DNA from: a virus
Taxonomy: Duplodnaviria > Caudoviricetes
Strand: one strand, 5' to 3'
Virus record (IMG/VR): IMGVR_UViG_3300005918_000002
Span: 1 to 58,935 of that record
DNA: 58,935 nucleotides
In this document: positions 7,384-24,556 of the stretch, piece by piece
Position numbering within the stretch: position 1 is the stretch's first letter
Layout of the letters: every line of letters begins with the position of its first letter
Made by a program: the position numbers and the translations under genes
Notes under the pieces: generated by a model
Seen by the model: the letters and a program-made list of their open reading frames with translations, nothing else
Told to the model about the DNA's origin: nothing
The model's database searches: none

Positions 7384-7674
7384 ATGAAAAATTTAACAGT
7401 AGTTGGTACTGGCAGTTACGATCATATGCCAGAACCTGCGGTCTATCAAAATTTAACAGGACTAACACTAGAGCAAGCATTAAAAGTTTTGCGAAGTGAA
7501 TCCTGGGGGAACATAGGCGAATTATCCCAAACCGATTTATCAGACGGCACATTTTTAGAGGTTAATTTAACGCCGGCGTCTGATGGTAATAGCAGGTATA
7601 TAAATAGCCAACGGGTTGAACGTTTTAAATATATAGACGGGTTTCCTAAAACTTTACGTAGATATTATATTTGA
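7384..7674 (+). CDS. Hypothetical protein
   Basis: GGAGG RBS; 96 aa. Confidence 0.55.
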   Translation: MKNLTVVGTGSYDHMPEPAVYQNLTGLTLEQALKVLRSESWGNIGELSQTDLSDGTFLEVNLTPASDGNSRYINSQRVERFKYIDGFPKTLRRYYI

Positions 7675-7688
7675 TGGGGAGAAATGAC

Positions 7689-8282
7689 ATGAAGATTAAA
7701 ATTGACATTTTACGTTGGGACACGGGAGAATTAATTTATTCATATGAATGCGAAGAGAACACGATAAAGATAACACTTGAAAGAGGTGTAAATGAAAAGA
7801 TTGATTTTTTCCGGGCGGAACTGAACTGGGCGGAACTGAACGGGGCGAAACTGAACGGGGCGAAACTGAACTGGGCGAAACTGAACGGGGCGGAACTGAA
7901 CGGGGCGAAACTGAACCGGGCGGAACTGAACTGGGCGAAACTGAACGGGGCGGAACTGAACCGGGCGGAACTGAACTGGGCGAAACTGAACGGGGCGGAA
8001 CTGAACTGGGCGGAACTGAACCGGGCGGAACTGAACTGGGCGGAACTGAACTGGGCGGAACTGGATTTTTCTTCATGGGGATTAAGCTGTAACACATTAA
8101 ATACATTGCTTGATCAAAGGCTAATTGTACAACTATTATTTCATGCTGCAAAACCATGTGAAAATAATAAAATAAAAATTGATGCCGATGTAAGGCGATT
8201 ATTCAAGTCGAAAATTTTTATAAAAATATTGCAGAAATTTCACCGCCAAGACGTTAAGGAATATACCGGGAATTTAAAATAA
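7689..8282 (+). CDS. Pentapeptide repeat protein
   Basis: 17 consecutive (W/G/R)A(E/K)LN-type repeats. Confidence 0.9.
   Translation: MKIKIDILRWDTGELIYSYECEENTIKITLERGVNEKIDFFRAELNWAELNGAKLNGAKLNWAKLNGAELNGAKLNRAELNWAKLNGAELNRAELNWAKLNGAELNWAELNRAELNWAELNWAELDFSSWGLSCNTLNTLLDQRLIVQLLFHAAKPCENNKIKIDADVRRLFKSKIFIKILQKFHRQDVKEYTGNLK
7812..8066. repeat. 15-bp tandem repeat, 17 units
   Basis: (t/g/c)GGGCG(g/a)AACTGAAC units encoding the pentapeptides. Confidence 0.95.
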
Positions 8283-13578: not shown

Positions 13579-13642
13579 CACTAACGTTGTAGATATAATT
13601 GGTGGATGGTTTTCACCATCCATTTCATATCGCTTGTTATGT
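13579..13642. mobile_element. attC-like site A
   Basis: CACTAAC...GATATAA/TT-C-ATATC...GTTATGT around a TGGATGGT/ACCATCCA hairpin; near-identical to site I. Confidence 0.75.
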
Positions 13643-13670
13643 TGCACAATGAAAGAACCGGAGATTATGT

Positions 13671-14486
13671 ATGATTGAAAGTAACGATAAAAGAGATTCT
13701 GTGGGTGGGGGTAGTTCCCTTTCCCCTGCTTGTACTCTTTTGCTCGGCGATTGTTTGGAAGTAATGAAGGATATACCAGACGGATCAATAGATGCGATTA
13801 TAACAGACCCGCCTTATGGAACTACTGCTTGTAAATGGGATAGTATTATTCCCTTAGAACCTATGTGGGGGCAGTTAAAGCGGGTCATCAAGCCGAACGG
13901 TGCTATCGTTATGACAGCAAGCCAGCCGTTCACCACAACCCTGATAGCGTCTAATATGAAGATGTTTAAGTATTGCTGGGTGTGGGATAAGCGAGTAGCA
14001 TCTAATTCTCAGCTTGCTAAGATTCAGCCACTAAAGATTCACGAAGATATTTGTGTTTTTGGTGTCGGCAGAATCACATACAATCCACAAGGTCTTACTG
14101 ATTGCAATATAAGCAAGAGTAATAAGAACAGAAGTAAAGGAGTTGGTCACGTTGGCAGTGAATCAAAAAGGGAAAGTTTTACCCAAACAAAAACAGGCTA
14201 TCCTAAGTCAATCCAAAACTTTAAGCCAAATAATATCGGCAAAATGCACCCAACTCAAAAGCCAGTAGCCCTAATGGAGTATCTAATTAAAACATATACT
14301 AACGAGAATGAAACAGTATTAGATTTTGCAATGGGAAGCGGAACAACTGGCGTAGCGTGTAAGAATCTAAATCGTAATTTCATAGGCATAGAAAAAGAAG
14401 AGAAGTATTTCAACATTTCAAAGGATCGTATTTCCCTAATCCCTAAAGGGGGTGGGAATTGCGATCAAACAGCATTAGCAATATAA
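13671..14486 (+). CDS. DNA N6-adenine/N4-cytosine methyltransferase (beta class)
   Basis: GDCLEVM, DPPY, HPTQKP and LDFAMGSGTT motifs. Confidence 0.93.
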   Translation: MIESNDKRDSVGGGSSLSPACTLLLGDCLEVMKDIPDGSIDAIITDPPYGTTACKWDSIIPLEPMWGQLKRVIKPNGAIVMTASQPFTTTLIASNMKMFKYCWVWDKRVASNSQLAKIQPLKIHEDICVFGVGRITYNPQGLTDCNISKSNKNRSKGVGHVGSESKRESFTQTKTGYPKSIQNFKPNNIGKMHPTQKPVALMEYLIKTYTNENETVLDFAMGSGTTGVACKNLNRNFIGIEKEEKYFNISKDRISLIPKGGGNCDQTALAI

Positions 14487-14538
14487 CCATTTCATAACCT
14501 GCCATGTTTCACCGGTCAGGTTGATGAACAGGTTAGAA
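14481..14538. mobile_element. attC-like site B
   Basis: ATATAAC..TTCAT-AACCTG-CC / GG-T-CAGGTT-G-ATGAA..GTTAGAA; MTase stop codon lies within TAAC. Confidence 0.85.
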
Positions 14539-14589
14539 AAATAATAAAAAAGAATGGTAAATATTAATCACAACAGGTGGAGGGGCAAA

Positions 14590-14874
14590 ATGAAATTCAG
14601 TATGAGAATTGGCGATTTTGAATTGAAATCATGTAATCAATATTTAACATCACTTGGTGAACACACAACAGCAGAAATAGTTCAATGGTCAAAAGATGAG
14701 ACAACGGGGAGGCTTTATTGTTGGACTATTGCATGCTGGCGTGAAGACAAAGAGGGATTTGATTTATATTTTATAGATAGTAGACCGTTTGAATGTGATG
14801 CCGAAACATTTTTTAAATTAGCAAAAACGGGACAAATATTTTTAACGGAATATCTGGAAAAGAAGTCAAGTTGA
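14590..14874 (+). CDS. Hypothetical protein
   Basis: GGAGGGG RBS; flanked by an 18-bp imperfect direct repeat. Confidence 0.55.
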   Translation: MKFSMRIGDFELKSCNQYLTSLGEHTTAEIVQWSKDETTGRLYCWTIACWREDKEGFDLYFIDSRPFECDAETFFKLAKTGQIFLTEYLEKKSS

Positions 14875-15135
14875 CATTAATCATAACAGGTAGGGAGGTG
14901 AGATAATTTGAGCTATATAATAACTGCGGATGTCTATTTAGACGAAGAAGAGAATTCATATGGTGAAATTGTAAAAGTAAATGCACGGATTTTATCTAAA
15001 CAGGGATCTTGTATAACTTTTGATATTGCCGGAGATCATTCGAGAAAACGAAAAAGAACAAAGATGTTGTGTGATACACTTATAAATGCAGGGTTTTATT
15101 CATTTAATATACGGCATTCTTATTAAAGGGCAAAT

Positions 15136-16368
15136 ATGACAACAATTTTTGACAATCCTCCACCCCAAGCAATTGATGCGGAAATGTCCGTGCTTGGATC
15201 AATACTGCTTGACAATAAAGTAATAAATATTGTAAAGCTATTACCAAAGCATTTTTACAGAACTTCGCATCGCCAGATATTTCAAGCTATGTTAAACATG
15301 GATAACCAGCCTATTGATATTATCTCGCTTGAGGAGCAGTTGAAAAAAGAAAAGTTGCTTGAAGAAATTGGCGGTTCATATTATCTAACAGAGCTTGCAG
15401 AATCCGTTCCCTCTGCGGCCAATGTTTATGAACATGTGAAAATCGTAATGGAAAAATATACACTAAGGCAAATAATTGAACTGGCATATAACGCAACTAA
15501 GGAAGCGAACGACCTTAATGAGTCAGGCGCAATAATAGATTCATTCTGTAATAAACTTGTTGAGCTATCAATTGCAGAGGTTAGGTCTGATCACATATCA
15601 GAGGCCTTGCATGAATTTAATGATTATGTAGACAGGAAACAAGCTGGCGAAATTGTAGACGTAAAAGTTCCGTTCATTGATAATTTTGAGGAAGGTGAAG
15701 TTATTGTTTTGGCGGCACGTCCCAGTCACGGTAAAACTTCGCTTGCTACCCAGATACTTTTTGAGTGTAATGTTCCGGCTGGTTTAATATCAATGGAAAG
15801 CACAAGAAAAAAAATAGCCGGTAGGATGTTGGCGCAACTTTCGCGAATTGATTCTAAAAAATTAAGTAGGGGAATGCTTGAGGGTGCAGACGTTGCGAGT
15901 GTAATTCAGGCATCCACCGAATTGGCAGAAGCACCAATATATCTTGATTTTGCATCTGATAAGATTTATGAAGTATTGGCTACTGGTCATAGATGGATAA
16001 AAGAACACAATATAAAATTATTAATCATTGATTATCTTCAGCTGATACGTGGAGGTAAAAGCGAAAGTAAGAATATAGAGATTGAAAATATTTCCAGGTC
16101 TTTGATGAGATTTGCAAAAAGAACCGGTGTACCCTTATTGATTTTATCACAATTAAGCCGGGATGGAAAGGTTAAACCGGGGCTTGAACATTTACGAGGT
16201 TCAGGAGCAATTGAGCAGGATGCCGACAGGGTTATATTTATTCGTCGACTTCACATCGAAAATGTCAGTGAGGTAATAATTGAAACGGCGAAATATAGAG
16301 ATGGTGAAATCGGCGAAATACTATTACATTTTAGGAAGGAAATGATGTTGTTTAATAAAGATTTTTAA
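15136..16368 (+). CDS. dnaB: Replicative DNA helicase DnaB-like
   Basis: PPQAIDAEMSVLGSIL N-terminus, AARPSHGKT, IIDYLQL, LSQLSR and LRGSGAIEQDAD motifs. Confidence 0.95.
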   Translation: MTTIFDNPPPQAIDAEMSVLGSILLDNKVINIVKLLPKHFYRTSHRQIFQAMLNMDNQPIDIISLEEQLKKEKLLEEIGGSYYLTELAESVPSAANVYEHVKIVMEKYTLRQIIELAYNATKEANDLNESGAIIDSFCNKLVELSIAEVRSDHISEALHEFNDYVDRKQAGEIVDVKVPFIDNFEEGEVIVLAARPSHGKTSLATQILFECNVPAGLISMESTRKKIAGRMLAQLSRIDSKKLSRGMLEGADVASVIQASTELAEAPIYLDFASDKIYEVLATGHRWIKEHNIKLLIIDYLQLIRGGKSESKNIEIENISRSLMRFAKRTGVPLLILSQLSRDGKVKPGLEHLRGSGAIEQDADRVIFIRRLHIENVSEVIIETAKYRDGEIGEILLHFRKEMMLFNKDF

Positions 16369-16411
16369 AGTGAAAATAAAACTTGTTTTTTAATAAAACC
16401 TAGGGGTGTAA

Positions 16412-16633
16412 TGATAACGTTCAAAGATAACCTGCCTTGCGGTGGTCGGGCATAATTGAAAGGATTTAATGATATGGATATAGTTGATGCACTTCAAGAG
16501 TATTTAGACAAAACAAATCTTGGGAATAATTTACTTTTAGATGATTTATTGTGTTCATCGAGGGATGTTATCAAAGAGTTGAGGGAGGCGGGGCAAGGTG
16601 AGTTGGGCGGTAATCAAGATGGGGTGGTTATTG
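16412..16633. mobile_element. attC-like site C (long loop, degenerate right arm)
   Basis: Left arm TGATAACGTTCAAAGATAACCTG matches site F from AAC onward; CCTTGC/GCAAGG pairing; right box GTTATTG at 16627. Confidence 0.5.
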
Positions 16634-16785
16634 ATATAAAGACGGCATTTGCTTTAGCGCACCCGAATATGTTTAGACCTGAACCGGTGTATGGTTGCAA
16701 GGCATGTAATCGACAAGTCGTACTTGAGAGTGACGACTATTGCCCAAAGTGTGGTGTAAAAATAACTTGGGTGGGAAAATCTTGA
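16474..16785 (+). CDS. Hypothetical protein with C-terminal zinc ribbon; starts inside the loop of site C
   Basis: CKAC...YCPKCG. Confidence 0.55.
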   Translation: MDIVDALQEYLDKTNLGNNLLLDDLLCSSRDVIKELREAGQGELGGNQDGVVIDIKTAFALAHPNMFRPEPVYGCKACNRQVVLESDDYCPKCGVKITWVGKS

Positions 16786-16789
16786 TTCC

Positions 16790-16865
16790 GAATAACAGTT
16801 ATATTCACCGGCGGAAGGCTGGGACGTGGGCGGAAGGGCCGTCCGTGTACAATATTTGGTTATCT
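16790..16865. mobile_element. attC-like site D
   Basis: GAATAAC..ATATTCACCGGCGG / CCGTCCGTGTA-C-AATAT..GTTATCT. Confidence 0.65.
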
Positions 16866-16902
16866 TTTTCGCCCCTAATCCCTAAGTTAATCAATAAATG
16901 TC

Positions 16903-16931
16903 TTGACATTAACAAATGATATATGTATATT
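16903..16931 (+). promoter_or_regulatory. Sigma70-like promoter
   Basis: TTGACA-N17-TATATT. Confidence 0.7.
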
Positions 16932-16940
16932 AAAATAACG

Positions 16941-17176
16941 AAAAATTGAGGGGAAAACGTAATTGAGATCATTGGGAAATTTGGACGCGCAACTTGTTGA
17001 AAGGTTATAGTAGCGAGTAGCAGCCATGTGCCATAGGCAATCTTGGCCCCGTATGGGTAGCAAATTAACCGGAAGGACAAGCTCTGTGAAGACTGGATAG
17101 CAGCCGACGAACAACTCGGAAATTCCCCAGCGAACGAGCCAACACAAAATGGTACTGAGGACACCCCTCAATTTTT
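16941..17176 (+). ncRNA. Candidate structured ncRNA (~236 nt), family unassigned
   Basis: Begins about 10 nt after the -10 box; perfect 13-bp closing stem AAAAATTGAGGGG/CCCCTCAATTTTT; GC-richer than flanks; no + strand ORF in the ORF track. Confidence 0.55.
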
Positions 17177-17191
17177 ATTAAGGAAAATTAA

Positions 17192-17341
17192 ATGCCAGCA
17201 CCTAAAAAGAAGCATCCAAAACAGCCATTAGGAATTCGCCTTCACCCTTTCATAATTAAGCGGTTAAGAAAAGAGGGTAAATATAATGCACTTATTCAGC
17301 GTTTATTATGTGAATATTTCGGTATAGACCTTGGCGAATAA
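17192..17341 (+). CDS. Ribbon-helix-helix-like small DNA-binding protein, 49 aa (not in ORF track)
   Basis: MPAPKKKHPKQPLGIRLHPFIIKRLRKEG...LCEYFGIDL; paralogous to the ORFs at 19900 and 21591. Confidence 0.6.
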   Translation: MPAPKKKHPKQPLGIRLHPFIIKRLRKEGKYNALIQRLLCEYFGIDLGE

Positions 17342-17487
17342 ATATAACGACCCAAATAACCGGCTTTGCCGGGAAGGGAATTTAAAATGAGTTTATTTGA
17401 CGAGGCTACCGAAAGAATGTTAGACGACGAAGAGAGAGAGAGGATATTGGCGGCGGAGCAAAGTCCGTGTTCATTACCGTGTTCTAC
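17342..17487. mobile_element. attC-like site E (ORF start in loop)
   Basis: ATATAAC..AAT-AACCGG-CTTTGC / GCAAAG-T-CCGTGTT-C-ATT..GTTCTAC. Confidence 0.75.
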
Positions 17488-17695
17488 AGGGGATAGTCGG
17501 GACGGGAAGGGTGGCCTTAAAAATGGTGGGTGGTTTAAGAATGAACGCGAAAGTAAGGTGCCGTGCAGGAATTGCCGTTGTCCACATTGGGGTGACAAAT
17601 ACAATCAAAGTTGTGGTGCGTCTGATATAATAAGTGAAAAATGCGCAATGATTTGTGAGGAATACATACCGAAAAGATTGGTGGGGGATTTTTAA
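17387..17695 (+). CDS. Cys-rich hypothetical protein starting in the loop of site E
   Basis: GGGAAGGG RBS and ATG 17387; reads through the right arm of the site. Confidence 0.55.
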   Translation: MSLFDEATERMLDDEERERILAAEQSPCSLPCSTGDSRDGKGGLKNGGWFKNERESKVPCRNCRCPHWGDKYNQSCGASDIISEKCAMICEEYIPKRLVGDF

Positions 17696-17699
17696 GTGT

Positions 17700-17921
17700 G
17701 TAGAACGTTCAAAGATAACCTGCGAAATGGCGGGGGAAGGAATTGGAAAAGATGGATTTAGATAAAAAATATTATACCAGTGAATACATTGAATGTAATA
17801 TACTTCAACTCGTAAAAATGGAACCAGAGTGGGCGGCTTATAGGATACAAGCAGGAGAGAAAGCAATTGAACAGCTTGAGGGTGAGGCGGGGATTTCGTC
17901 AGGTTCATCTAGTGGTTCTAC
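17700..17921. mobile_element. attC-like site F (ORF start in loop)
   Basis: GTAGAAC..AGAT-AACCTG-CGAAAT / ATTTCG-T-CAGGTT-C-ATCT..GTTCTAC. Confidence 0.85.
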
Positions 17922-18219
17922 AGTGGGGGGCGGTGTGGTGATGGATGGCATTAAAAAATTCATGGGTGGAAGGGCTTGTTTAAAGATTGGCGATGGATCA
18001 ACACTTATCAGTGAAGCCCATTATAAGGACAGTATTGATAATGTCCTCGTATTGACGCAATATCACGAGTGTAGAAAAATAGGGTCAGAGCTAAAAGGTT
18101 CTGCCGGCAACCCTGCTACCAACAACGGCACAGTACTTGAAATAGTATTTACAAACTCCACTTCTGTACAAGTTGTAATAGACGCACTAGTTAAAATAAA
18201 AGCGGCCCTTGGGGAATGA
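17752..18219 (+). CDS. Hypothetical protein starting in the loop of site F
   Basis: ORF reads through the right arm (GISSGSSSGST). Confidence 0.55.
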   Translation: MDLDKKYYTSEYIECNILQLVKMEPEWAAYRIQAGEKAIEQLEGEAGISSGSSSGSTVGGGVVMDGIKKFMGGRACLKIGDGSTLISEAHYKDSIDNVLVLTQYHECRKIGSELKGSAGNPATNNGTVLEIVFTNSTSVQVVIDALVKIKAALGE

Positions 18220-18231
18220 ATTATTTAATGT

Positions 18232-18289
18232 GTAGAACCACTTCATAACCTGCCACGTTTCACCGGTCAGGTTGATGAACATGTTAGAA
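18232..18289. mobile_element. attC-like site G
   Basis: Near-identical to site B; GTAGAAC...GTTAGAA. Confidence 0.85.
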
Positions 18290-18310
18290 AATCGGAGAGG
18301 AGTAATTATT

Positions 18311-18505
18311 ATGAGTTGCTGGACAAAAGAAGAACTGGAAAACATGCTTGAAGATGTTGTTAATGAGTTAGAGTTGTCCGGTTCTATATTAGAAGAACAT
18401 GGGCCATTAGGAACACCGCCAGCTGAATTGGTTAGGCTTGTATTGGATGAGAAGGATAAAATCATATCAGCACAAAAAGCCGGATTAAAAATTATATTTT
18501 CTTAA
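18311..18505 (+). CDS. Hypothetical protein (cassette G-H)
   Basis: GAGGAG RBS and ATG 18311. Confidence 0.55.
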   Translation: MSCWTKEELENMLEDVVNELELSGSILEEHGPLGTPPAELVRLVLDEKDKIISAQKAGLKIIFS

Positions 18506-18506
18506 C

Positions 18507-18730
18507 ATATAACATTGGGCTCACCGATTTAGCGGTGGGGAAAGGATAGAATACTATGAGCGTACCAATTAGACATTTAAAACAAGCTTTGGCAATTATG
18601 GGTGTTTCAACCCCAGAAAGTCTTGAGGAATTTAGACAAGATGAATTAAAATGGATTAACAAGCTTGTTTTTACCGTAGTAATATTTGGGGATGAAGGGG
18701 CAAAATCCGCCGTGCAGCCAGTGGTTAGCC
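18507..18730. mobile_element. attC-like site H (ORF start in loop)
   Basis: ATATAAC..GGCT-CACCGATTTAGC / GCAAAATCCGCCGTG-C-AGCC..GTTAGCC. Confidence 0.65.
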
Positions 18731-18897
18731 AAGACGGAGCGGCGGCAAAGGTTGATATTATTCGTCCACTTATTGATGATACCATGAAATATCACAGAAC
18801 GGCGAACAGTAGAGCGAGTAAATTACTAACTGCATTGAATATTAGTGTTGATGCAGTTAAGGAGATACTTAAAGAGTGGGTTGATCGGAGTCAGTAA
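18556..18897 (+). CDS. Hypothetical protein starting in the loop of site H
   Basis: AAGGA RBS; reads through the right arm (AKSAVQPVVS). Confidence 0.55.
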   Translation: MSVPIRHLKQALAIMGVSTPESLEEFRQDELKWINKLVFTVVIFGDEGAKSAVQPVVSQDGAAAKVDIIRPLIDDTMKYHRTANSRASKLLTALNISVDAVKEILKEWVDRSQ

Positions 18898-19056
18898 GAA
18901 GAGGTAAACCATGAAAAACCTTATAAGAAAAATCGGTGAAACAATAATGTTTATCATTGAGTTTTTAGTAACTCTGTTAGGATATGGCCTGTTTGATTTT
19001 AAAGATGGGTTAGAATCTTATGGTAAACCAAAGTATATTAAAATACGGGGGACGAA

Positions 19057-19545
19057 ATGAAAAGGCAAAATTTATTTAAGGCGGCCATTTGCAGTTTTAT
19101 CCTGGCGGTAATTGCAATCATTCTTTTTTCCGGATGCCGTGACGATACGGCAGTTTGGAAACGTATTGCAGAATTGGAAAAGAAGCAAGTCGCAACGGAG
19201 GCCGCTCTTGACAGTGTGGTTTTCAAGGCGGAATTGAGACGAGAAATAAATACAGTCTGGCTCGGAATCGACGGGCTGGATGAAGAAATTATTGACATTG
19301 AAACCCGGCAAGCGGCAATAATGAACCGTCTTGCAAAGTTGGAAGTTGATACCGGGGGAATTATACTTATTTGGAATGAGAATAAATTCGATCCCCGGCG
19401 GCCAGTATACGGATACCGGATTTATTTAGGAAATCACTTGATCTGGGCAGGTCAGGACACATCCGTAACGCTGGAAAATTTAAGGTATTCGGCGTATAAT
19501 TCTGCCGGGGAATCGTTTGGTTTGGAGAAGGTGAGGATAAAATGA
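19057..19545 (+). CDS. Putative lipoprotein
   Basis: Signal peptide with LFSG-C lipobox; Fn3-like fragments YGYRIY..SAYNSAGES. Confidence 0.6.
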   Translation: MKRQNLFKAAICSFILAVIAIILFSGCRDDTAVWKRIAELEKKQVATEAALDSVVFKAELRREINTVWLGIDGLDEEIIDIETRQAAIMNRLAKLEVDTGGIILIWNENKFDPRRPVYGYRIYLGNHLIWAGQDTSVTLENLRYSAYNSAGESFGLEKVRIK

Positions 19546-19607
19546 ATATTTTTTCACGCCTAACCCCTTGTTTCTGTTGCCCTCTTTGAAAATAGTTGAA
19601 AAAAGAC

Positions 19608-19636
19608 TTGACTTTAATCTAAATGATTAGTATATT
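19608..19636 (+). promoter_or_regulatory. Sigma70-like promoter
   Basis: TTGACT-N17-TATATT; shares AAAAAAGACTTGACTTT context with the 6744 promoter. Confidence 0.7.
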
Positions 19637-19899
19637 TATAGTGTCATGAGAGACCAAACTAAAAAAAACGAGGAAAAGAAAGTGACAGCGATACAACAAG
19701 AATTGAAAAGATATGCAGAGATAAGAGCGCAATTATATCAGATTAAAGGTTTTGGGGGGACATCAATTAACGCTGCTATATCTTATGCCGTTGCTGATAT
19801 GATTAATGAACTCAATAATTTTGCAACCAATAAGGTTGAATATTTAAAAAGCGAAAACGAATATCTTTTAGGGTGTATATCGAAATTAAAGGAAGTAGC

Positions 19900-20268
19900 A
19901 TGAGAGGCGGCAAACGAGAAGGGGCCGGACGCAAGCCCAAGCCCGATAAAAAGAAGCCCGTATCTTTTCGCCTTCATCCTAAACTGATTGAACGGTTGAA
20001 GAGAGAAGAAAACCAAGCAAGTGCAATTGAAAAGGCATTGTGCCGATGGTTCGGTATAGACCTTGATGAGCAAGAGACAGAAAAAGAGGGCAAGGCAATG
20101 AAGATAGTTAGAATTAATGAAATTATTTTAAGGGCCAATACTTATCCAACATATTTTGTAGATTATAAGATAGGTAAGGACTGTTGGAAAAATTATGGTA
20201 GTTCTTGTGTCTATGCGGCTGCATTAGAAATGAAAAAACAAATAAATTCCGGGGAAATAGTACTATGA
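19900..20268 (+). CDS. Ribbon-helix-helix-like DNA-binding protein, apparently fused to a second small domain
   Basis: RGGKREGAGRKP...VSFRLHPKLIERL. Confidence 0.65.
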   Translation: MRGGKREGAGRKPKPDKKKPVSFRLHPKLIERLKREENQASAIEKALCRWFGIDLDEQETEKEGKAMKIVRINEIILRANTYPTYFVDYKIGKDCWKNYGSSCVYAAALEMKKQINSGEIVL

Positions 20269-20904
20269 TTTTTAGAGTTAAATTTAAGATAGATGGAAAT
20301 GAAAAATCCGCAATTGAGCCAGAATGTGGATGGTTTTTAATTGACCAACAGGGAAAGTTTTATAGTTATGGGCCATGTTCACCTGTAAAACCTGTTGAAA
20401 GTTGCATTAAAGAAATAGAGCCTTTAATATTAATAAACAATGAGTACTTGACAATTGAAGAGATAGAAGAAAGGATTAATAAATTTTGAATATTTCGAGA
20501 TAGACCTTGATGAATAAAAGATGAGGATTGAATGAAGGTTATAAAGTGTAAAAAATGTGGTATGACCTTGTGGCTCAAGGCTGATAGTAAAAAGAAATGC
20601 CACATTCCTAAACGATGTTCATTTTGTGGAGAATATTACATCTTGATGAATAAAAGGATGAAAGAGCAAGTAACACAATGATTCTAAATAATATTATATT
20701 TAATAATCGGTTATTTCGTATATTCGACAAAAAGAAACAGACCTACTGGGAAATTCTCTGCCGGATTGATTATGACACAGAAGAGATAACCGTTATAAAC
20801 AGGGGTGACGAAGACGAAACAACTGTTTTTTTTGGAGATGTATTGATTCATGGTGATATTTCAGCAACCTTGATAAATAAACAAATAAAAACGGGGAGTT
20901 TAAA

Positions 20905-21285
20905 ATGAAAGTCAGAATGAGCGCGCAAATGATTGATGATAATAACATCTTGATTCAACTTAATTTCTCAGGAAAAGGCGTTGATAGCGCTGAAATGATT
21001 GGAAGCGAAGCAAAAAAATATCAAGCAGAAGTACAAAAAATTGATTATGAGGATCAAATGAAAGTTACAATCAGAACCGCAGACATTAAACGGCACGGCA
21101 CAACTATTTTGCTTGGCCAAAAACGAACGGCAACCGAAGGGCGTGAGGGTAACCTGAAAACACTTAACATCCGCGAGAATGGTAAACACATTAAATCTTT
21201 TAGAGGCAGTTCTCTTGGTTTTTGTAATCCTCTTACAGATAAGGATAAGGATTATTTGGCCTCGCTCGGAAGCAATATTGAATAA
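20905..21285 (+). CDS. Hypothetical protein
   Basis: GGGGAG RBS; 126 aa. Confidence 0.5.
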   Translation: MKVRMSAQMIDDNNILIQLNFSGKGVDSAEMIGSEAKKYQAEVQKIDYEDQMKVTIRTADIKRHGTTILLGQKRTATEGREGNLKTLNIRENGKHIKSFRGSSLGFCNPLTDKDKDYLASLGSNIE

Positions 21286-21590
21286 AGACAACCAGACGGT
21301 TTTAAATTTATGCCGCCGCAAAATATCTGGAAGCTACTAAAGCACACTTGTAAAAAAGGAGACAAAATGGGACAGGATGAAACTTATTTTTATGACGGGC
21401 AAAAAGTAGAAGCTCTTCATTTTGAAGATGGGACACACTGGACCGTTGGCCAGTCAGGGATTGAGAAGATTATTGTAATCATGGAAAACGGAGAGATGGC
21501 AAGTGTTGTGTGGTTTGGCGTTTATAAAGACGGAAAATTAACATTTAAACAAAATCGTAAGTTTGTTAGCCACGCAACTATGGTTAAAAT

Positions 21591-21782
21591 ATGAGGGGCG
21601 GCAAACGACTAGGGGCTGGACGCAAACCGGCCCTTCACAAAAAGCGGATGGTATCTTTTCGACTTCATCCAAAATTGATTGAACGGTTGAAGATGGAAAA
21701 TAATCAGGCCAGTGCAATTGAAAAGGCATTATGCCAATGGTTTAATATAGATCTTCAACAAGGAGACAATGAGCAACTTTGA
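21591..21782 (+). CDS. Ribbon-helix-helix-like DNA-binding protein (paralog of 19900)
   Basis: RGGKRLGAGRKP...VSFRLHPKLIERLK..NQASAIEKALC. Confidence 0.7.
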   Translation: MRGGKRLGAGRKPALHKKRMVSFRLHPKLIERLKMENNQASAIEKALCQWFNIDLQQGDNEQL

Positions 21783-22208
21783 TAAAATGACCAGAAATCC
21801 ATCCACTGGCAAATTACAAAAAGCTAGTTGGATAGATAACTATTTTGGGAATCATATATACGGAGTTCAATTCCCGGATGGTAAAATCTGGAATGAAAAA
21901 GATATTAAAGATATTGAAGGGGATGTAGAGGAGATTACAATAATTGAACATGATGGGTTCCATTGCGGTGTCTGTGGTAAATGGGTAGCCAGGAAAAAGA
22001 AAGTATCTCAGTTTGCTGTTCAATGGTGGGACATCTGGGGACTATGTGACAGGTGCGATAATTGCAGGGGAGGGGATTTAAAATGAGAAATGTAATAAAG
22101 TGTACAAACGAAATTCATGTGATATTAAAAAAATATAAGTGTAAGAATGGTGATAAGTGCAGTAAATGCGGCAATACTGAATTGAGTAGTGATGAAACTT
22201 TTTAGCAT

Positions 22209-22272
22209 GCATAACGTTGGAGATATAATTGGTGGATGGTTTTCACCATCCATTTCATATCGCTTGTTATGT
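22209..22272. mobile_element. attC-like site I
   Basis: GCATAAC...GTTATGT; near-identical to site A. Confidence 0.8.
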
Positions 22273-22309
22273 TTTTCACCCCTATAACCAAAGAATGGAA
22301 AGGATTAGA

Positions 22310-22870
22310 ATGAAGGTGTTAATTGCTTGTGAATATTCCGGTGTAGTGCGTGACGCATTTATTAAGAGAGGCCACGATGCAGTGAGTTGTGACATTTTAC
22401 CAACAGAGAGATCCGGGCCCCATTATATGGGTAATGTTTTACCCCTATTGGGTGAAGGGTGGGATCTTATGATTGCTCATCCACCGTGTACAAGATTATG
22501 TAACTCAGGTGTTTGCTGGCTTGACAAAAGGAACCTTTGGGACGAAATGAGAGAGGGGGCCCGGTTTTTCAAAACTTTACTAAATGCGGACATACCTAGA
22601 ATTGCTATAGAGAATCCTATACCACATGGTTATGCGGTGAGAGAGATTGGTAAAAAATATGATCAGATTATACAGCCTTGGCAATTCGGGCACGGGGAGA
22701 CAAAGGCCACTTGTCTATGGCTAAAGAACTTGCCAAAATTAGAACCAACTAGAATTGCTAAAGGAAGAGAGCAGCGATTGCACATGTTGCCGCCTTCTAA
22801 AGATAGGGCGAAGTTGAGGAGTAAAACGTATTTTGGTATCGCTGACGCAATGGCAATTCAATGGGGTTGA
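22310..22870 (+). CDS. Short phage-type DNA cytosine methyltransferase-like protein
   Basis: VLIACEYSG, SCD, HPPC and IENP motifs (C5-MTase motifs I/IV/VI-like); GIADAMAIQW C-terminus. Confidence 0.8.
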   Translation: MKVLIACEYSGVVRDAFIKRGHDAVSCDILPTERSGPHYMGNVLPLLGEGWDLMIAHPPCTRLCNSGVCWLDKRNLWDEMREGARFFKTLLNADIPRIAIENPIPHGYAVREIGKKYDQIIQPWQFGHGETKATCLWLKNLPKLEPTRIAKGREQRLHMLPPSKDRAKLRSKTYFGIADAMAIQWG

Positions 22871-22888
22871 CCTATACCCTGTGAATAA

Positions 22889-22946
22889 ATATAACGCCCA
22901 TTATCAGCGGCGGGCGTTTATCGTCCGCTGCATAATTTTGTTATAA
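22889..22946. mobile_element. attC-like site J
   Basis: ATATAAC..ATTAT-CAGCGG-CG / CG-T-CCGCTG-C-ATAAT..GTTATAA. Confidence 0.85.
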
Positions 22947-22962
22947 TTGGAGGGAATATAAA

Positions 22963-23148
22963 ATGAATGAATACGATGTAAAAAGATTAGCTTTGATTTT
23001 GGCCATACAAGCAGACATTGAAGGAATGAAAATTGAAAACAAGGTTAGGTTGAGTAACAATCAATCACCAGCATATCCCGATGGTGAATTTATGATGAAA
23101 TCGGAAGAATTAAGAGAACTGGCCTATAAACACAATGAACAATTATAA
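22963..23148 (+). CDS. Hypothetical protein (cassette J-K)
   Basis: GGAGGG RBS; stop codon within the TAAC of site K. Confidence 0.65.
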   Translation: MNEYDVKRLALILAIQADIEGMKIENKVRLSNNQSPAYPDGEFMMKSEELRELAYKHNEQL

Positions 23149-23222
23149 CGTTGGTGCTTACCGGCAAATAGGCGGTAAGGAATTGGCTGTGACGGGTTGC
23201 CGCGTACAGCACTTTGTTAGCC
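23143..23222. mobile_element. attC-like site K
   Basis: TTATAAC..GTGCT-TACCGGCAA / TTGCCGCGTA-C-AGCAC..GTTAGCC. Confidence 0.8.
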
Positions 23223-23280
23223 TTAGAGAATGTGGCGTACAGAGCCACGCTTATGAACGGCGTACACGAGGGAAGATGAC

Positions 23281-24237
23281 TTGAATATGTTAGACTTATT
23301 TTCAGGAATCGGCGGATTTCGATTAGCAGCGCAAAGGGTTTGGGGGGAATCTCTAAACTGTAAATGCATGGTAGAGCTTGACCCGTTCTGTCAAAAGGTA
23401 CTTATGAAAAATTGGCCAGGAGTGACAATACATGACGACATTAAAACATTCAAGGGGAGCGGATGGGGAACAATTGACATTCTTACCGGGGGGTTTCCAT
23501 GCCAACCGTTTAGTGTTGCCGGGAAGCAGGGAGGCCGGGAGGATGACCGTTACCTCTGGCCTGAAATGCTCCGCGTTATTAAAGAAGCAAAGCCCCGTTG
23601 GGTTGTTGGGGAAAATGTTACTGGAATCATCAATCTGGCACTCGACGACGTGCTTACTTCGTTGGAAGGTGAGGGGTACGAGACAGAAACGTTTATTATT
23701 CCAGCTTGCGGTGCGGACGCCAAACACAGAAGGAACCGAGTCTGGATTGTTGCCAACAATGAGGGGTCGTTTGACGGGCAACCTATCCCCAAAGAGGTGT
23801 GGGGACAAATTCAACAACTTAGAATCAGTGTTGAGTCGGCAAATGTGGCCAACCCCAAGTGTAAACGAGCCGGGGTGGAAATACAGGACACCAGTAGACA
23901 AGAATGGAAATGCACCAACCCATCACAATCAAAGATGGTACGACAAGGAAACGGGGCGGTTAATGCAGAAAGGATTGGAGCATGCAGTGAAGATGTGGCC
24001 GACAATGACCGCTTGCGAATGGAAGGGGAGAGGCCCGAACAGCAAACAAAAGGGATTAACGAACGCAATTGGATGTACGGGTGGGAGCCTGAACCCTCAG
24101 TGGGTCGAGTGGCTGATGGGATACCCTCAAGGGTGGACAGACTTAAATCACTCGGAAACTCAATAGTGCCGCAAGTGGCTGAACGAATTTTCTGGGGGTT
24201 GCGCTGTGTAGAAGAGGCATTGTGTACGCAAGGCTAA
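23281..24237 (+). CDS. DNA (cytosine-5)-methyltransferase, large subunit
   Basis: DLFSGIGG, GGFPCQPFS, ENV, HRRNRVW and LGNSIVP motifs. Confidence 0.93.
   Translation: MNMLDLFSGIGGFRLAAQRVWGESLNCKCMVELDPFCQKVLMKNWPGVTIHDDIKTFKGSGWGTIDILTGGFPCQPFSVAGKQGGREDDRYLWPEMLRVIKEAKPRWVVGENVTGIINLALDDVLTSLEGEGYETETFIIPACGADAKHRRNRVWIVANNEGSFDGQPIPKEVWGQIQQLRISVESANVANPKCKRAGVEIQDTSRQEWKCTNPSQSKMVRQGNGAVNAERIGACSEDVADNDRLRMEGERPEQQTKGINERNWMYGWEPEPSVGRVADGIPSRVDRLKSLGNSIVPQVAERIFWGLRCVEEALCTQG
23432..24166 (+). CDS. Nested alternative-frame ORF, putative second C5-MTase subunit (motif IX-like)
   Basis: 244 open codons inside the MTase gene; GGAG upstream; LNPQWVEWLMGYPQGWT C-terminus. Confidence 0.65.
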   Translation: MTTLKHSRGADGEQLTFLPGGFHANRLVLPGSREAGRMTVTSGLKCSALLKKQSPVGLLGKMLLESSIWHSTTCLLRWKVRGTRQKRLLFQLAVRTPNTEGTESGLLPTMRGRLTGNLSPKRCGDKFNNLESVLSRQMWPTPSVNEPGWKYRTPVDKNGNAPTHHNQRWYDKETGRLMQKGLEHAVKMWPTMTACEWKGRGPNSKQKGLTNAIGCTGGSLNPQWVEWLMGYPQGWTDLNHSETQ

Positions 24238-24291
24238 CCACTTCATAACCTGCCGCTGTAGTCCACGGTCAGGTTCATGAACAGGTTAGAC
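24232..24291. mobile_element. attC-like site L
   Basis: GGCTAAC..TTCAT-AACCTG-CCG / CGG-T-CAGGTT-C-ATGAA..GTTAGAC; MTase stop codon within TAAC. Confidence 0.85.
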
Positions 24292-24556
24292 AAAATAAAG
24301 GAGAGTAAATATTTGATAAAGCCACATGTCTTCCGAGTAGTTCACGGCAAGGGTGAATTACTAGAGGGAGGAGAAGTTACCAGGTATCGGGGAATGAATT
24401 TCCATACCTGCAATATAAAAAGTAAAAAGAATATCTGCCAGTGGTGTGGCGAGCTTACGGATAACGAGAGGTTTTGCACAACCGGCCACATGTGGAAACA
24501 TCGGAAAAAGGTGAAACGTTACGCAAAGAACGTAACATAAAAAACGGATTGTTATA

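Follow-up and report, generated by a model that had tools for sequence, protein, structure and literature searches.

attC-like hairpins with polarity reversed relative to their genes in an integrase-less salt-lake phage genome

Integron sites in bacteria and phages

In integrons, the integrase picks the bottom strand of the recombination site, so that cassettes enter with their gene facing the promoter. The terminal boxes of an attC site, R′ and R′′, carry the conserved triplets 5′-AAC...GTT-3′ (consensus RYYYAAC / GTTRRRY). Chromosomal integrons also contain cassettes with a gene opposite to the array, typically toxin-antitoxin genes with their own promoters. Where at least two attC sites lie close together without a nearby integron integrase, the group is termed a CALIN (cluster of attC sites lacking integrase), for which IntegronFinder uses a spacing rule of 4 kb. 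The attC bottom strand has two to three extrahelical bases opposite AAC, the first at position 16 (usually G) and the last at position 23/24 (T), with a 6-bp stem between them (Nivina et al., 2016; PMC5027507).

CALINs in virulent phages are already known; what is new here is the polarity of the sites relative to the genes. In the phage CALINs described by Qi et al. (2023, Front Microbiol, PMC9892861), attC sites separate single small genes, methyltransferase cassettes with orphan DNA methyltransferases are among the cargo, and IntI1 recombined 5 of the 6 phage sites tested. Phage P12002L is reported there to have attC sites in "divergent directions", and the available parts of that report describe no array of reversed polarity (Qi et al., 2023; PMC9892861).

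The site cluster of the salt-lake phage

The window, by which we mean the whole stretch of 58,935 nucleotides that was analyzed, is a complete, virulent-looking phage genome (58.9 kb) from a salt lake, with a cluster of candidate sites at 13.6 to 24.3 kb. The sites and the methyltransferase genes that they bracket are given below, where R1, R2, and R3 denote home-built covariance models made from real attC bottom strands. The models give approximate E-values; most of the weight in R1 and R2 comes from class 1 sites, whilst R3 was built from Vibrio sites only.

S1, 13579-13645, + strand: attC-like hairpin; core (13582-13643) 98% identical to the S8 core; repeat family D6; seen by folding, weak by the models
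N6/N4 DNA methyltransferase gene, 13671-14486, + strand: PF01555 (E 1.7e-33); bracketed by S1 and S2
S2 (site B), 14481-14538, + strand: attC-like; T14516 and G14523 bulge out of the 3′ arm; match of the strict pattern scan; 9/9 pairs
S3, 16414-16470, + strand: degenerate, without GTT end; 5′ arm AAC...ATAACCTGC common to S3 and S5; from motif positions and folding
S3b, 16790-16865, + strand: weak attC-like site directly 3′ of the gene at 16456-16785; R3 12.6 bits on + (E 0.77); 6/10 pairs
S4, 17342-17380, + strand: ATATAAC and short hairpin, 5′ of a ribosome-binding site; from folding
S5, 17700-17745, + strand: half-site with S3-like 5′ arm and short hairpin, without GTT end; from motif positions and folding
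S6 (site G), 18232-18289, + strand: 93% copy of S2; bulged T18267 and G18274; repeat family D7; 9/9 pairs
S7, 18507-18545, + strand: half-site, ATATAAC and short hairpin whose 3′ side extends into the ribosome-binding site; from folding
S8, 22209-22272, + strand: attC-like, copy of S1; R2 11.3 and R3 13.8 bits on +
DNA methyltransferase gene, 22310-22870, + strand: phrog_757 (E 1.5e-58), no Pfam match found; bracketed by S8 and S9
S9, 22889-22946, + strand: attC-like; T and C bulges that fit the attC register; 9/9 pairs
S10, 23143-23222, + strand: 80-nt AAC...GTTAGCC element with two inner hairpins; from folding
C-5 cytosine DNA methyltransferase gene, 23281-24237, + strand: PF00145 (E 1.4e-42); bracketed by S10 and S11
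S11, 24232-24291, + strand: third copy of the S2 family; bulged T and C (C replaces G at the second bulge); 9/9 pairs

Profile searches of the complete 58.9 kb genome found no integrase of any kind (0 matches to PF00589, TIGR02249, PF00239, and PF01797) and no Y1 transposase. With no tyrosine recombinase found in the genome, the locus differs from a complete integron, in which intI, attI, and a cassette promoter lie beside the array. Since this is a complete phage with attC-type sites but without an integrase, we class the 13.6 to 24.3 kb stretch as a CALIN; the distance from S2 to S6 is 3.7 kb, and a span of 2.1 kb takes in S8, S9, and S11. The sites separate single accessory genes, all genes between them are on the sense strand, and, of the four DNA methyltransferase genes of the phage, three have a site on either side. 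The dnaB helicase gene, which is also present in a more distant relative, lies between S2 and the following sites, and excision there would therefore probably disable the phage.

The cluster shares with class 1 and Vibrio chromosomal attC arrays the inverted AAC...GTT boxes, the L box, a pair of extrahelical bases opposite AAC with 6 bp between them, a site length of 58 to 83 nt, and an arrangement in single-gene units with the site right after the stop codon, the stop often being part of the left box (the TAA stops of the genes at 13671-14486 and 23281-24237 fall within the left boxes of S2 and S11, respectively). It differs from them in the orientation of the strand, which is opposite with respect to the genes, and in that no intI was found, the central spacer of the S2 family is largely paired, and two sites have C as their second bulge. 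Tetrasphaera phage TJE1, which has a 3-site CALIN, is likewise of lytic type and without an integron integrase, and one of its sites, which aligns with the S2 family at 52 to 55% identity, has that family's stem and both its T and its G bulge. In contrast, the bottom strand is opposite the genes in 3/3 TJE1 sites but coincides with the coding strand in the window. The opposite-gene cassettes of chromosomal integrons also have their gene on the strand bearing the attC bottom strand; those, however, are single exceptions in canonical arrays, whereas in the window and in other phages whole arrays are of this kind, with genes read together with the remainder of the phage genome.

Strand assignment and recurrence in other viral contigs

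In the window sites, it is the coding strand that carries the bottom-strand signature, namely a 5′ AAC and, on the 3′ arm, two extrahelical bases with 6 bp between them. An earlier note on this DNA had placed the bulges of sites B and G on the 3′ arm of the + strand, and the sequence reads as claimed: S2 runs ATATAAC CATTTCAT AACCTG CC...GG-T(14516)-CAGGTT-G(14523)-ATGAACAG-GTT(14532-14534)AGAA. In S2, S6, S9, and S11, all nine positions of the L box and the 6-bp stem are paired, with a bulge at position 16 (G in S2 and S6, C in S9 and S11) and a T at position 23, and the 8 nt from the first bulge to GTT are kept as in attC. The layout of extrahelical bases is not clean in S1 (8/10 pairs on + and 7/10 on −), S8, S3b, and S10. 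The pair count of S10 was left aside, its coordinates having been off by 2. Perfect geometry was seen in 18/27 sites on the assigned strand and in 0/27 on the opposite strand. A strict pattern, consisting of AAC, the exact complement of the 6-base stem, and then T-N6-G-N8-GTT, matched the window twice on + and never on −, compared with a mean of 0.29 (both strands summed) in 100 window shuffles. That T-N6-G-N8-GTT canonically lies on the non-coding strand, as the note had stated, was borne out in six real cassette arrays (six matches opposite the genes, none coding), and the aadA1 string that it quoted was found on the minus strand of one contig (L007:36865-36924).

The outer parts of the sites are less regular. 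TAAC...GTTA is present in S1, S2, S3b, S8, S9, S10, and S11, and S6 has GAAC...GTTA, its left box reading GAAC instead of TAAC. The R box of S11 is the best paired (GGCTAAC/GTTAGAC); the outer three to four box bases are often unpaired, as in real arrays, and the R helix is 75% paired in the family alignment described below. The central spacer is mostly paired in S2, S6, and S11, with two to three unpaired bases per arm versus the usual five to six, and is 6/5 in S9 in the model register. Four sites (S3, S4, S5, and S7) lack the right end and comprise only the left AAC end and a short hairpin. The right end of S4 is uncertain, because the models pair its AAC with differing GTTs inside the next gene (R1, 17342-17425, 10.1 bits; R2, 17342-17487, 17.3 bits).

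The covariance models were run on known arrays as controls. R1 gave 22 matches on the strand opposite the cassette genes, and its four weak coding-strand matches were the top strands of four of those same sites (11 to 19 vs 75 to 84 bits). In an independent Vibrio array, 15/15 full-length R2 matches fell on the strand expected, and 3/3 TJE1 sites, scoring 20.4 to 31.8 bits, were assigned by R2 to the non-coding strand. In every control (class 1 cassettes, Vibrio array, and validated TJE1 sites), the model matches thus lay on the strand opposite the cassette genes. In the window, wherever a site was matched, the best match was instead on the coding strand; the earlier note had proposed an attC covariance model as the check on strand, and the outcome agrees with its reading. 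Of the R2 matches, the six highest-scoring were all on +. For S2, R2 scored 23.1 bits on + versus 9.9 on −, with 18.3 bits from R1 on +; for S11 the corresponding values were 21.9, 8.2, and 20.0 bits; and S6 scored 15.3 bits on +, with no − match at E ≤ 10. S9 was matched on + by all three models (R3 23.7, R2 14.6, R1 12.3 bits), and the R3 matches to S8 and S3b were on + as well. The scores of the window sites are modest (11 to 24 bits), and noise elsewhere reached at most 12.9 bits over ~116 kb. S1 was absent from the R2 and R3 matches at E ≤ 10, and S10 was matched by neither model in the window, its likeness to a site in another viral contig (G4b of L024; 27.2 bits, R2) being judged by eye. 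The polarity of S8 is weakly determined; its unconstrained fold has six unpaired bases on the 5′ arm and two on the 3′ arm, and the free-energy fold of S9 favors another register. The claim that all sites with readable bulges agree therefore held for the covariance models but failed for S8 and S9 when they were folded without constraint, their extra bases then lying on the 5′ arm.

Site families are common to the window and unrelated viral contigs, in eight of which the bottom-strand-like strand is the coding strand: G002 (10/10 matches), L024 (2/2), L107 (4/4 strict sites), and L106, L112, L114, L116, and L117, each with one or two sites of this family oriented likewise. Because it is present in these contigs, the reversed layout is a recurring arrangement rather than an oddity of one genome. 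Contig G003 and phage TJE1 carry the same family canonically, so polarity is not intrinsic to the family, which qualifies the interpretation of the earlier note. After collapsing related contigs, the tally is ~5 reversed lineages versus 1 canonical, plus TJE1. As judged from these sequences, reversed polarity recurs across several phage lineages. Models trained on attC only reach up to 34 bits at sites of related contigs. In an alignment of eight family members, including one of the three TJE1 sites, 80/80 cells of the inner helix are paired, 4/10 pairs show compensatory changes, and the T bulge is present in 8/8 rows. In most contigs, each site lies on the sense strand, after one gene's stop codon and before the following ribosome-binding site; in two G002 sites, the start codon is inside the loop. 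The only site common to the window and another phage is S9, of which G002 has a 55-nt copy that is 92.7% identical. The flanks of the two copies are unrelated on both sides, with no flank moving with the site, and a protein-by-protein comparison of G002 and the window found no common protein at E 1e-4. Homologs of the methyltransferase between S8 and S9, at 80 other viral loci, were not flanked by such sites.

Possible roles of the reversed sites

The explanation that we consider best, and hold with slightly more confidence than doubt, is that these are integrase-less, attC-type single-strand recombination hairpins, of reversed polarity relative to the genes, that serve a host integron integrase. 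The + strand hairpins would be the substrate of such an enzyme. They could form whenever the + strand is unpaired, such as while it serves as lagging-strand template, provided that replication and transcription run the same way. The cut would be made after the second A of the left AAC, ahead of its C, and recombination between two sites would excise or swap the intervening genes as "site plus downstream gene" units. Such units could be exchanged among phages with this polarity and remain aligned to phage transcription, whilst a bacterial attI would take them in reversed with respect to the cassette promoter. We propose that opposite entry into attI, together with exchange among like phages, would therefore keep a gene pool partly separate from bacterial integrons. 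Several results weigh against this explanation: the phage has no integrase, the model scores are modest, the spacer of the S2 family is mostly paired and the second bulge of S9 and S11 is C, some sites are weak or without a right end, dnaB lies inside the cluster, the two S9 copies have unrelated flanks, and the position of the sites would suit an RNA element as well.

The sites could also be genuine attC descendants of past integrase-mediated insertions that are now inert, their orientation being an accident of insertion or lineage history without function. An integron integrase inserts cassettes at genomic 5′-GWT-3′ on either strand without bias (bioRxiv 10.1101/2022.09.11.507474), both orientations exist among the lineages tallied above, and four half-sites that have degenerated, along with a number of weak ones, point to decay. 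We nevertheless regard this reading as doubtful, given that phages with no other relation have retained the inner helix in full, compensatory changes included, and that the 55-nt S9 site is nearly the same in two phages without a common protein. Moreover, a canonical cassette inserted backwards would bring an antisense gene, whereas the genes between sites are all sense.

The main rival is a role at the RNA level, in which the hairpins act in mRNA as intercistronic processing, stabilizing, or terminating stem-loops and their attC likeness is convergent, or inherited and disused. T7-like phages have intercistronic hairpins that are processed by RNase III and that resemble the present sites in being irregular, ~60 nt long, on the sense strand between genes, and asymmetric on the 3′ side. 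The bulged strand is the sense strand in the window and in the eight other contigs, and the space between stop codon and next ribosome-binding site is where an RNA element would also be. The short sites S4, S5, and S7 extend into the ribosome-binding site, the loops of two G002 sites hold a start codon, and S9 scores as a terminator-like hairpin with a T-rich tail. Among the sites, S9 (22907-22931) is the only one listed by a scanner for intrinsic terminators, which found nine terminator-like sites in the region versus 9.8 expected in shuffles; S2, S6, and S11 are followed by A-rich sequence, and the sites generally are not G+C-rich hairpins followed by a T run. We think an RNA role unlikely, because the same family with the same bulges is antisense to genes in TJE1 and G003. 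In addition, the AAC...GTT ends are at the exact integrase-binding spacing, for which an RNA element has no known need, and the RNase III hairpins of T7-like phages are not known to have AAC/GTT boxes or attC spacing. A binding factor would need to be of host origin, because G002 and the window have no common protein. The fully paired inner helix and its compensatory changes in the eight-member family also speak against a purely RNA role, and IntI1 recombined sites of TJE1 (Qi et al., PMC9892861).

Finally, we consider it very improbable that the hairpins are substrates of another single-stranded-DNA enzyme, the candidates being host transposases of the HUH or IS200/IS605 type, REP-associated tyrosine transposases, and factors for priming or replication that recognize lagging-strand hairpins. 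In favor of this reading, the hairpins are strand-specific, bulged, intergenic, and spread over unrelated phages, and S5 and S6 have GTAG, a head sequence of REP elements, 5′ of AAC. Against it, the phage has no Y1 transposase, the AAC/GTT ends, 6-bp bulge spacing, and 8 nt to GTT match attC in detail, and attC-only models score as high as they do in related contigs.

Returning to host-integrase recombination sites, a broader and more tentative picture, which we offer as a possibility rather than an expectation, is that phages keep a mirror-image integron cassette system. Phages infecting the same cell would trade "site plus downstream gene" units, for the most part anti-restriction methyltransferases, with host integrases doing the shuffling; attC hairpins would spread among unrelated phages with the coding strand as the recombinogenic one (the lagging-strand template if replication follows transcription); and the units would be unreadable once captured by a bacterial integron.

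Software that assumes canonical cassette orientation mis-assigns genes to cassettes in phage CALINs, and the sites described here are a concrete set for comparing the two strands in a standard recombination assay. Whole reversed arrays in several phage lineages would mean either that integron chemistry operates under a different orientation rule, or that attC-like hairpins do other, strand-specific work in phages. On both readings, the sites delimit accessory modules whose cargo includes anti-restriction genes.

The strand that carries the attC signature

The window, 58,935 bases long, represents a whole viral record and has a terminal direct repeat of 90 bases. Of the 106 reading frames in a greedy open-reading-frame map, 98 lie on the plus strand. 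Direct reading of the sequence located the bulge bases as the earlier note had claimed, on the 3′ arm of the plus (coding) strand (T14516 and G14523 in site S2; T18267 and G18274 in site S6). Together with S11, these two sites form one family of 77 to 91% identity, in which the plus strand has the layout xxxxAAC, 8 bases, AACCTG, loop, T, CAGGTT, G, 8 bases, GTTAGAx, with C replacing G as the second bulge in S11. Both single bases are unpartnered on the 5′ arm, and the central spacer is mostly paired. The strict layout pattern matched the window twice on the plus strand and never on the minus strand; shuffled windows gave 0.29 matches per window, both strands counted.

attC-like sites in the window
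S1, 13579-13645, plus strand: AAC...GTT hairpin, weak; core 98% identical to that of S8
S2, 14481-14538, plus strand: S2-family site
S3b, 16790-16865, plus strand: AAC...GTT hairpin, weak
S6, 18232-18289, plus strand: S2-family site
S8, 22209-22272, plus strand: AAC...GTT hairpin, weak; core 98% identical to that of S1
S9, 22889-22946, plus strand: AAC...GTT hairpin, assigned by models and pair count
S10, 23143-23222, plus strand: AAC...GTT hairpin, weak
S11, 24232-24291, plus strand: S2-family site
S3, S4, S5, S7, plus strand: shorter elements, left end and short hairpin only

In attC sites, as described by Nivina et al. (2016; PMC5027507), position 16 holds the first extrahelical base, most often G, and position 23 or 24 holds the last, a T; a 6-bp stem is required between the two. 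As controls we took ten class 1 integron regions of plasmids, together with a chromosomal-type array carried by a Vibrio phage. In six control arrays, the strict pattern gave six matches opposite the cassette genes and none on the coding strand, confirming the canonical polarity from which the earlier note had argued, and the aadA1 string that it quoted was found on the minus strand at L007:36865-36924.

Strand was assigned with three home-built attC covariance models: R1, trained on the bottom strands of eight short class 1 sites with a manually entered textbook structure; R2, from 18 R1 matches, all on the expected strand; and R3, for which all 14 training sites came from the Vibrio array. 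In a control of 198,553 bases, R1 gave 26 matches, 22 of which were opposite the genes; the remaining four fell on the top strand at four sites already among the 22, scoring 11 to 19 bits versus 75 to 84. All 15 full-length R2 matches in the Vibrio array, which was unseen in training, fell on the expected strand (7 to 22 bits). In the Tetrasphaera phage TJE1, whose genes are on the plus strand, R2 placed the three sites of the validated CALIN (a cluster of attC sites lacking an integron integrase) on the minus strand, at 31.8, 30.3, and 20.4 bits.

With filters off, the best six R2 matches in the window all lay on the plus strand (S2, 23.1 bits; S11, 21.9; 17342-17487, 17.3; S6, 15.3; S9, 14.6; S8, 11.3), and the minus-strand scores of S2 and S11 were 9.9 and 8.2 bits. 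R3 scored S9 at 23.7, S8 at 13.8, and S3b at 12.6 bits, again on the plus strand; model noise elsewhere was at most 12.9 bits over ~116 kb. All 9 of the 9 attC-register positions were paired on the plus strand of S2, S6, S9, and S11, and among the 27 sites from all sources pairing was perfect in 18 on the assigned strand and in none on the opposite strand. Covariance-model assignment, which the earlier note had proposed as a check, gave the plus (coding) strand with R2 and R3.

In an unconstrained fold, the unpaired bases of the 5′ and 3′ arms number 6 versus 2 in S8 and 5 versus 2 in S9; the free-energy register of S9 competes with its attC register, and this site is also terminator-like. Fold energy was abandoned as a strand test because it does not separate the strands even in real sites: only 12 of 23 folded more stably on the bottom strand. 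We also rejected the left motif, TATAAC, as a promoter element (21 occurrences on the plus strand versus 27 expected). Rfam yielded no gathering-score match, and the six matches up to E 10 fell at none of the sites.

Site orientation in other viral contigs

The centre of S9 was found in one other viral contig, G002, which comprises 37,186 bases with terminal repeats and has no tyrosine recombinase. The stretch common to both is only 55 bases long (92.7% identity) with unrelated flanks, and no G002 protein matched the window at E 1e-4. At E up to 1, R2 matched G002 10 times, in every case on the minus strand and within 6.7-13.5 kb; the genes at these sites, which include HTH_3 and HNH matches, are likewise on the minus strand, where reading frames amount to 29.4 kb versus 5.7 kb on the plus strand. 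At two long G002 sites (L021, 8106-8225 and 13438-13537), the next gene has its ribosome-binding site and ATG within the hairpin loop, and the 3′ arm is coding sequence.

Two scans with S2-like patterns yielded 15 new loci besides that of G002 (L020). Seven were excluded from the orientation tally, six being intragenic matches and one, L110, a perfect palindrome without a bulge. We call an array reversed when the attC bottom-strand signature is on the coding strand, and canonical when it is opposite the cassette genes.

Orientation of sites at loci in other viral contigs
L024, two sites, 29.2 and 27.2 bits: coding strand, with the portal gene and ribosome-binding sites on the same strand
L107, four consecutive strict sites: coding strand
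L112 and L114: reversed, clear from frame content
L116 and L117: probably reversed
L106: reversed, on the basis of a ribosome-binding site and start codon only
L023 (contig G003), four sites, 24.6 to 34 bits: plus strand, with the intervening small frames and next three genes on minus

The minus-strand genes of G003 have GGAGG-type ribosome-binding sites, and since its sites are on the plus strand, its orientation is canonical. G003 also has a Xer-like tyrosine recombinase (L023, 2298-3422), 1.4 kb from the four-site array. This protein was rejected as an integron integrase (43 bits versus a cut-off of 265); it has a zinc-ribbon-like N-terminus and is transcribed away from the array, resembling an integron-platform layout. 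Counted by contig, nine are reversed, the window included, and one is canonical, TJE1 being an additional canonical case; because several contigs carry near-identical sites, the independent lineages are nearer five versus one. Downstream of a homologue of the window methyltransferase 22310-22867, locus L088 has two coding-strand matches of strict attC geometry with GAAC...GTTC boxes (1169-1290 and 1840-1927), a pair that could be due to chance or could mark one more small reversed array.

An alignment of eight family members, drawn from five sources and including one TJE1 site, has 80 of 80 inner-helix cells paired, with compensatory changes in 4 of 10 pairs; each of the 8 rows has the T bulge, and 6 of them have G as the second bulge. 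The covariation score was 0.206, compared with 0.095 when shuffled, and none of 500 shuffles reached it, a figure that overstates the significance since the rows are related. Conservation across unrelated phages does not fit the idea that the sites are inert relics, which we regard as unlikely even though the degenerate sites would suit it. A role of the hairpins at the RNA level would agree with the sense-strand placement of the sites, but it is somewhat less likely again, as it explains neither the antisense family members nor the attC spacing. That the sites serve another single-strand enzyme is very improbable, and nothing points to one.

Breakpoints, linkage, and the surrounding region

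The interpretation offered in the earlier note, in which reversed sites cross over at the left AA/C and each site travels ahead of its gene, is only partly supported as a whole; the part that stands is the coding-strand signature, which the models give and which recurs in other contigs. Conservation of the right-hand box extends past GTT in the two multi-copy families of the window, and the bases left of AAC vary, a pattern that a left-hand crossover would give and that hints weakly at one, in three and two copies only.

Megablast of window 14000-24400 against GenBank phages gave no match, and DnaB patterns gave no relative in viral contigs. The only relative reached was L017/G001, with a DnaB of 49% identity and 7 proteins in common with the window at 30 to 50%; it has no attC-like match above 9.4 bits, and it is unusable for breakpoints because such identity is too distant. 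Searched as short BLAST queries against GenBank phages, S2 and S9 gave partial chance-level matches only, or none. The exact S2-family pattern had no match in viral contigs, two in the genomes of 185,579 species (~1.6 expected by our estimate; no flanking AAC/GTT), and three in metagenome contigs, which lack AAC/GTT flanks as well; all five were taken as chance.

All 18 runs listed with the window stretch are labelled salt lake metagenome, possibly from one campaign. In runs X7, X8, X9, and X11, phage depth was ~5 to 7-fold and the short contigs break at the repeated sites; no site-to-site joint was among the joints listed for the four runs, whose contigs drop rare variants and are too shallow and broken up to weigh for or against such joints. 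One low-depth X8 contig (4.3) has the S1/S8 outer arms (13582-13643 / 22212-22273) around a different 24-base centre, which is similar to the S2-family stem, differs from it by a compensating base-pair change, and retains the T bulge. There seem to be further site variants in the lake population.

Site-gene linkage was examined in 80 viral loci with homologues of methyltransferase 22310-22867 (58 to 73% identity, 262 kb), where strict matches numbered three on the plus and one on the minus strand, approximately the chance rate. Of the known phages compared, P12002L gave no site-like match with R2, and PH101 gave no match in a lossy whole-record search; sites may still be present in both.

The region's best sigma-70-like promoter match (TTGACA, 17 nt, TATATT; 11/12) lies in window 16903-17185. 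It is followed by ~248 nt without a long plus-strand reading frame, the ends of which pair (AAAAATTGAGGGG with CCCCTCAATTTTT) and which finish in a terminator-like hairpin and T run. This stretch, a possible small RNA gene, gave no Rfam match and a fold z-score of only -1.6. Three paralogous small genes are located at 17192-17341, 19900-20268, and 21591-21782, two of them sharing 79% of 165 nt; their products, without a Pfam match, are ribbon-helix-helix-like by eye and end in ...FGIDL. An orphan copy of their 3′ end (20487-20518) follows another gene. Paralogues and fragment resemble a further type of repeated module border, where the region is without attC-like sites.

The nearest homologue of the window DnaB (15136-16368) is that of one phage relative (49%), followed by cellular proteins at ~40%. 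The latter include proteins source-named candidate division KSB1 and Calditrichaeota, a faint hint that the host may belong to this group. A 15-nt tandem repeat of ~17 or more copies (7753-8112), within frame 7671-8282, would encode a 5-residue protein repeat.

The array and its polarity

Profile search of the window gave no match to a tyrosine recombinase, integron integrase, serine recombinase, or Y1 transposase. The array is most likely a CALIN of the kind present in virulent phages (Qi et al., 2023; PMC9892861). Section 3.4 of that paper notes methyltransferase cassettes in phage CALINs and reports that IntI1 recombined five of the six sites tested; two of the three TJE1 sites were tested by these authors. 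Four methyltransferase genes lie in or adjoin the window array, three of them bracketed by sites.

The phage CALIN itself is already known, and what is new is that the relation of site strand to gene strand is reversed. We found no paper on reversed attC polarity in phages by title or abstract, and the strand tables for the 17 CALINs of Qi et al. may hold reversed arrays. A canonical cassette keeps its gene on the top strand whichever way it is inserted, and the reversal therefore belongs to the units themselves and not to insertion direction. Outside att sites, cassettes are described as inserting on either strand (bioRxiv 10.1101/2022.09.11.507474). Composition of the window gave no replication origin signal. 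Bottom-strand folding is described as favoured on the lagging-strand template (PMC5371416, PMC13108822); if replication follows transcription in this phage, reversed polarity would place the recombinogenic strand on that template.
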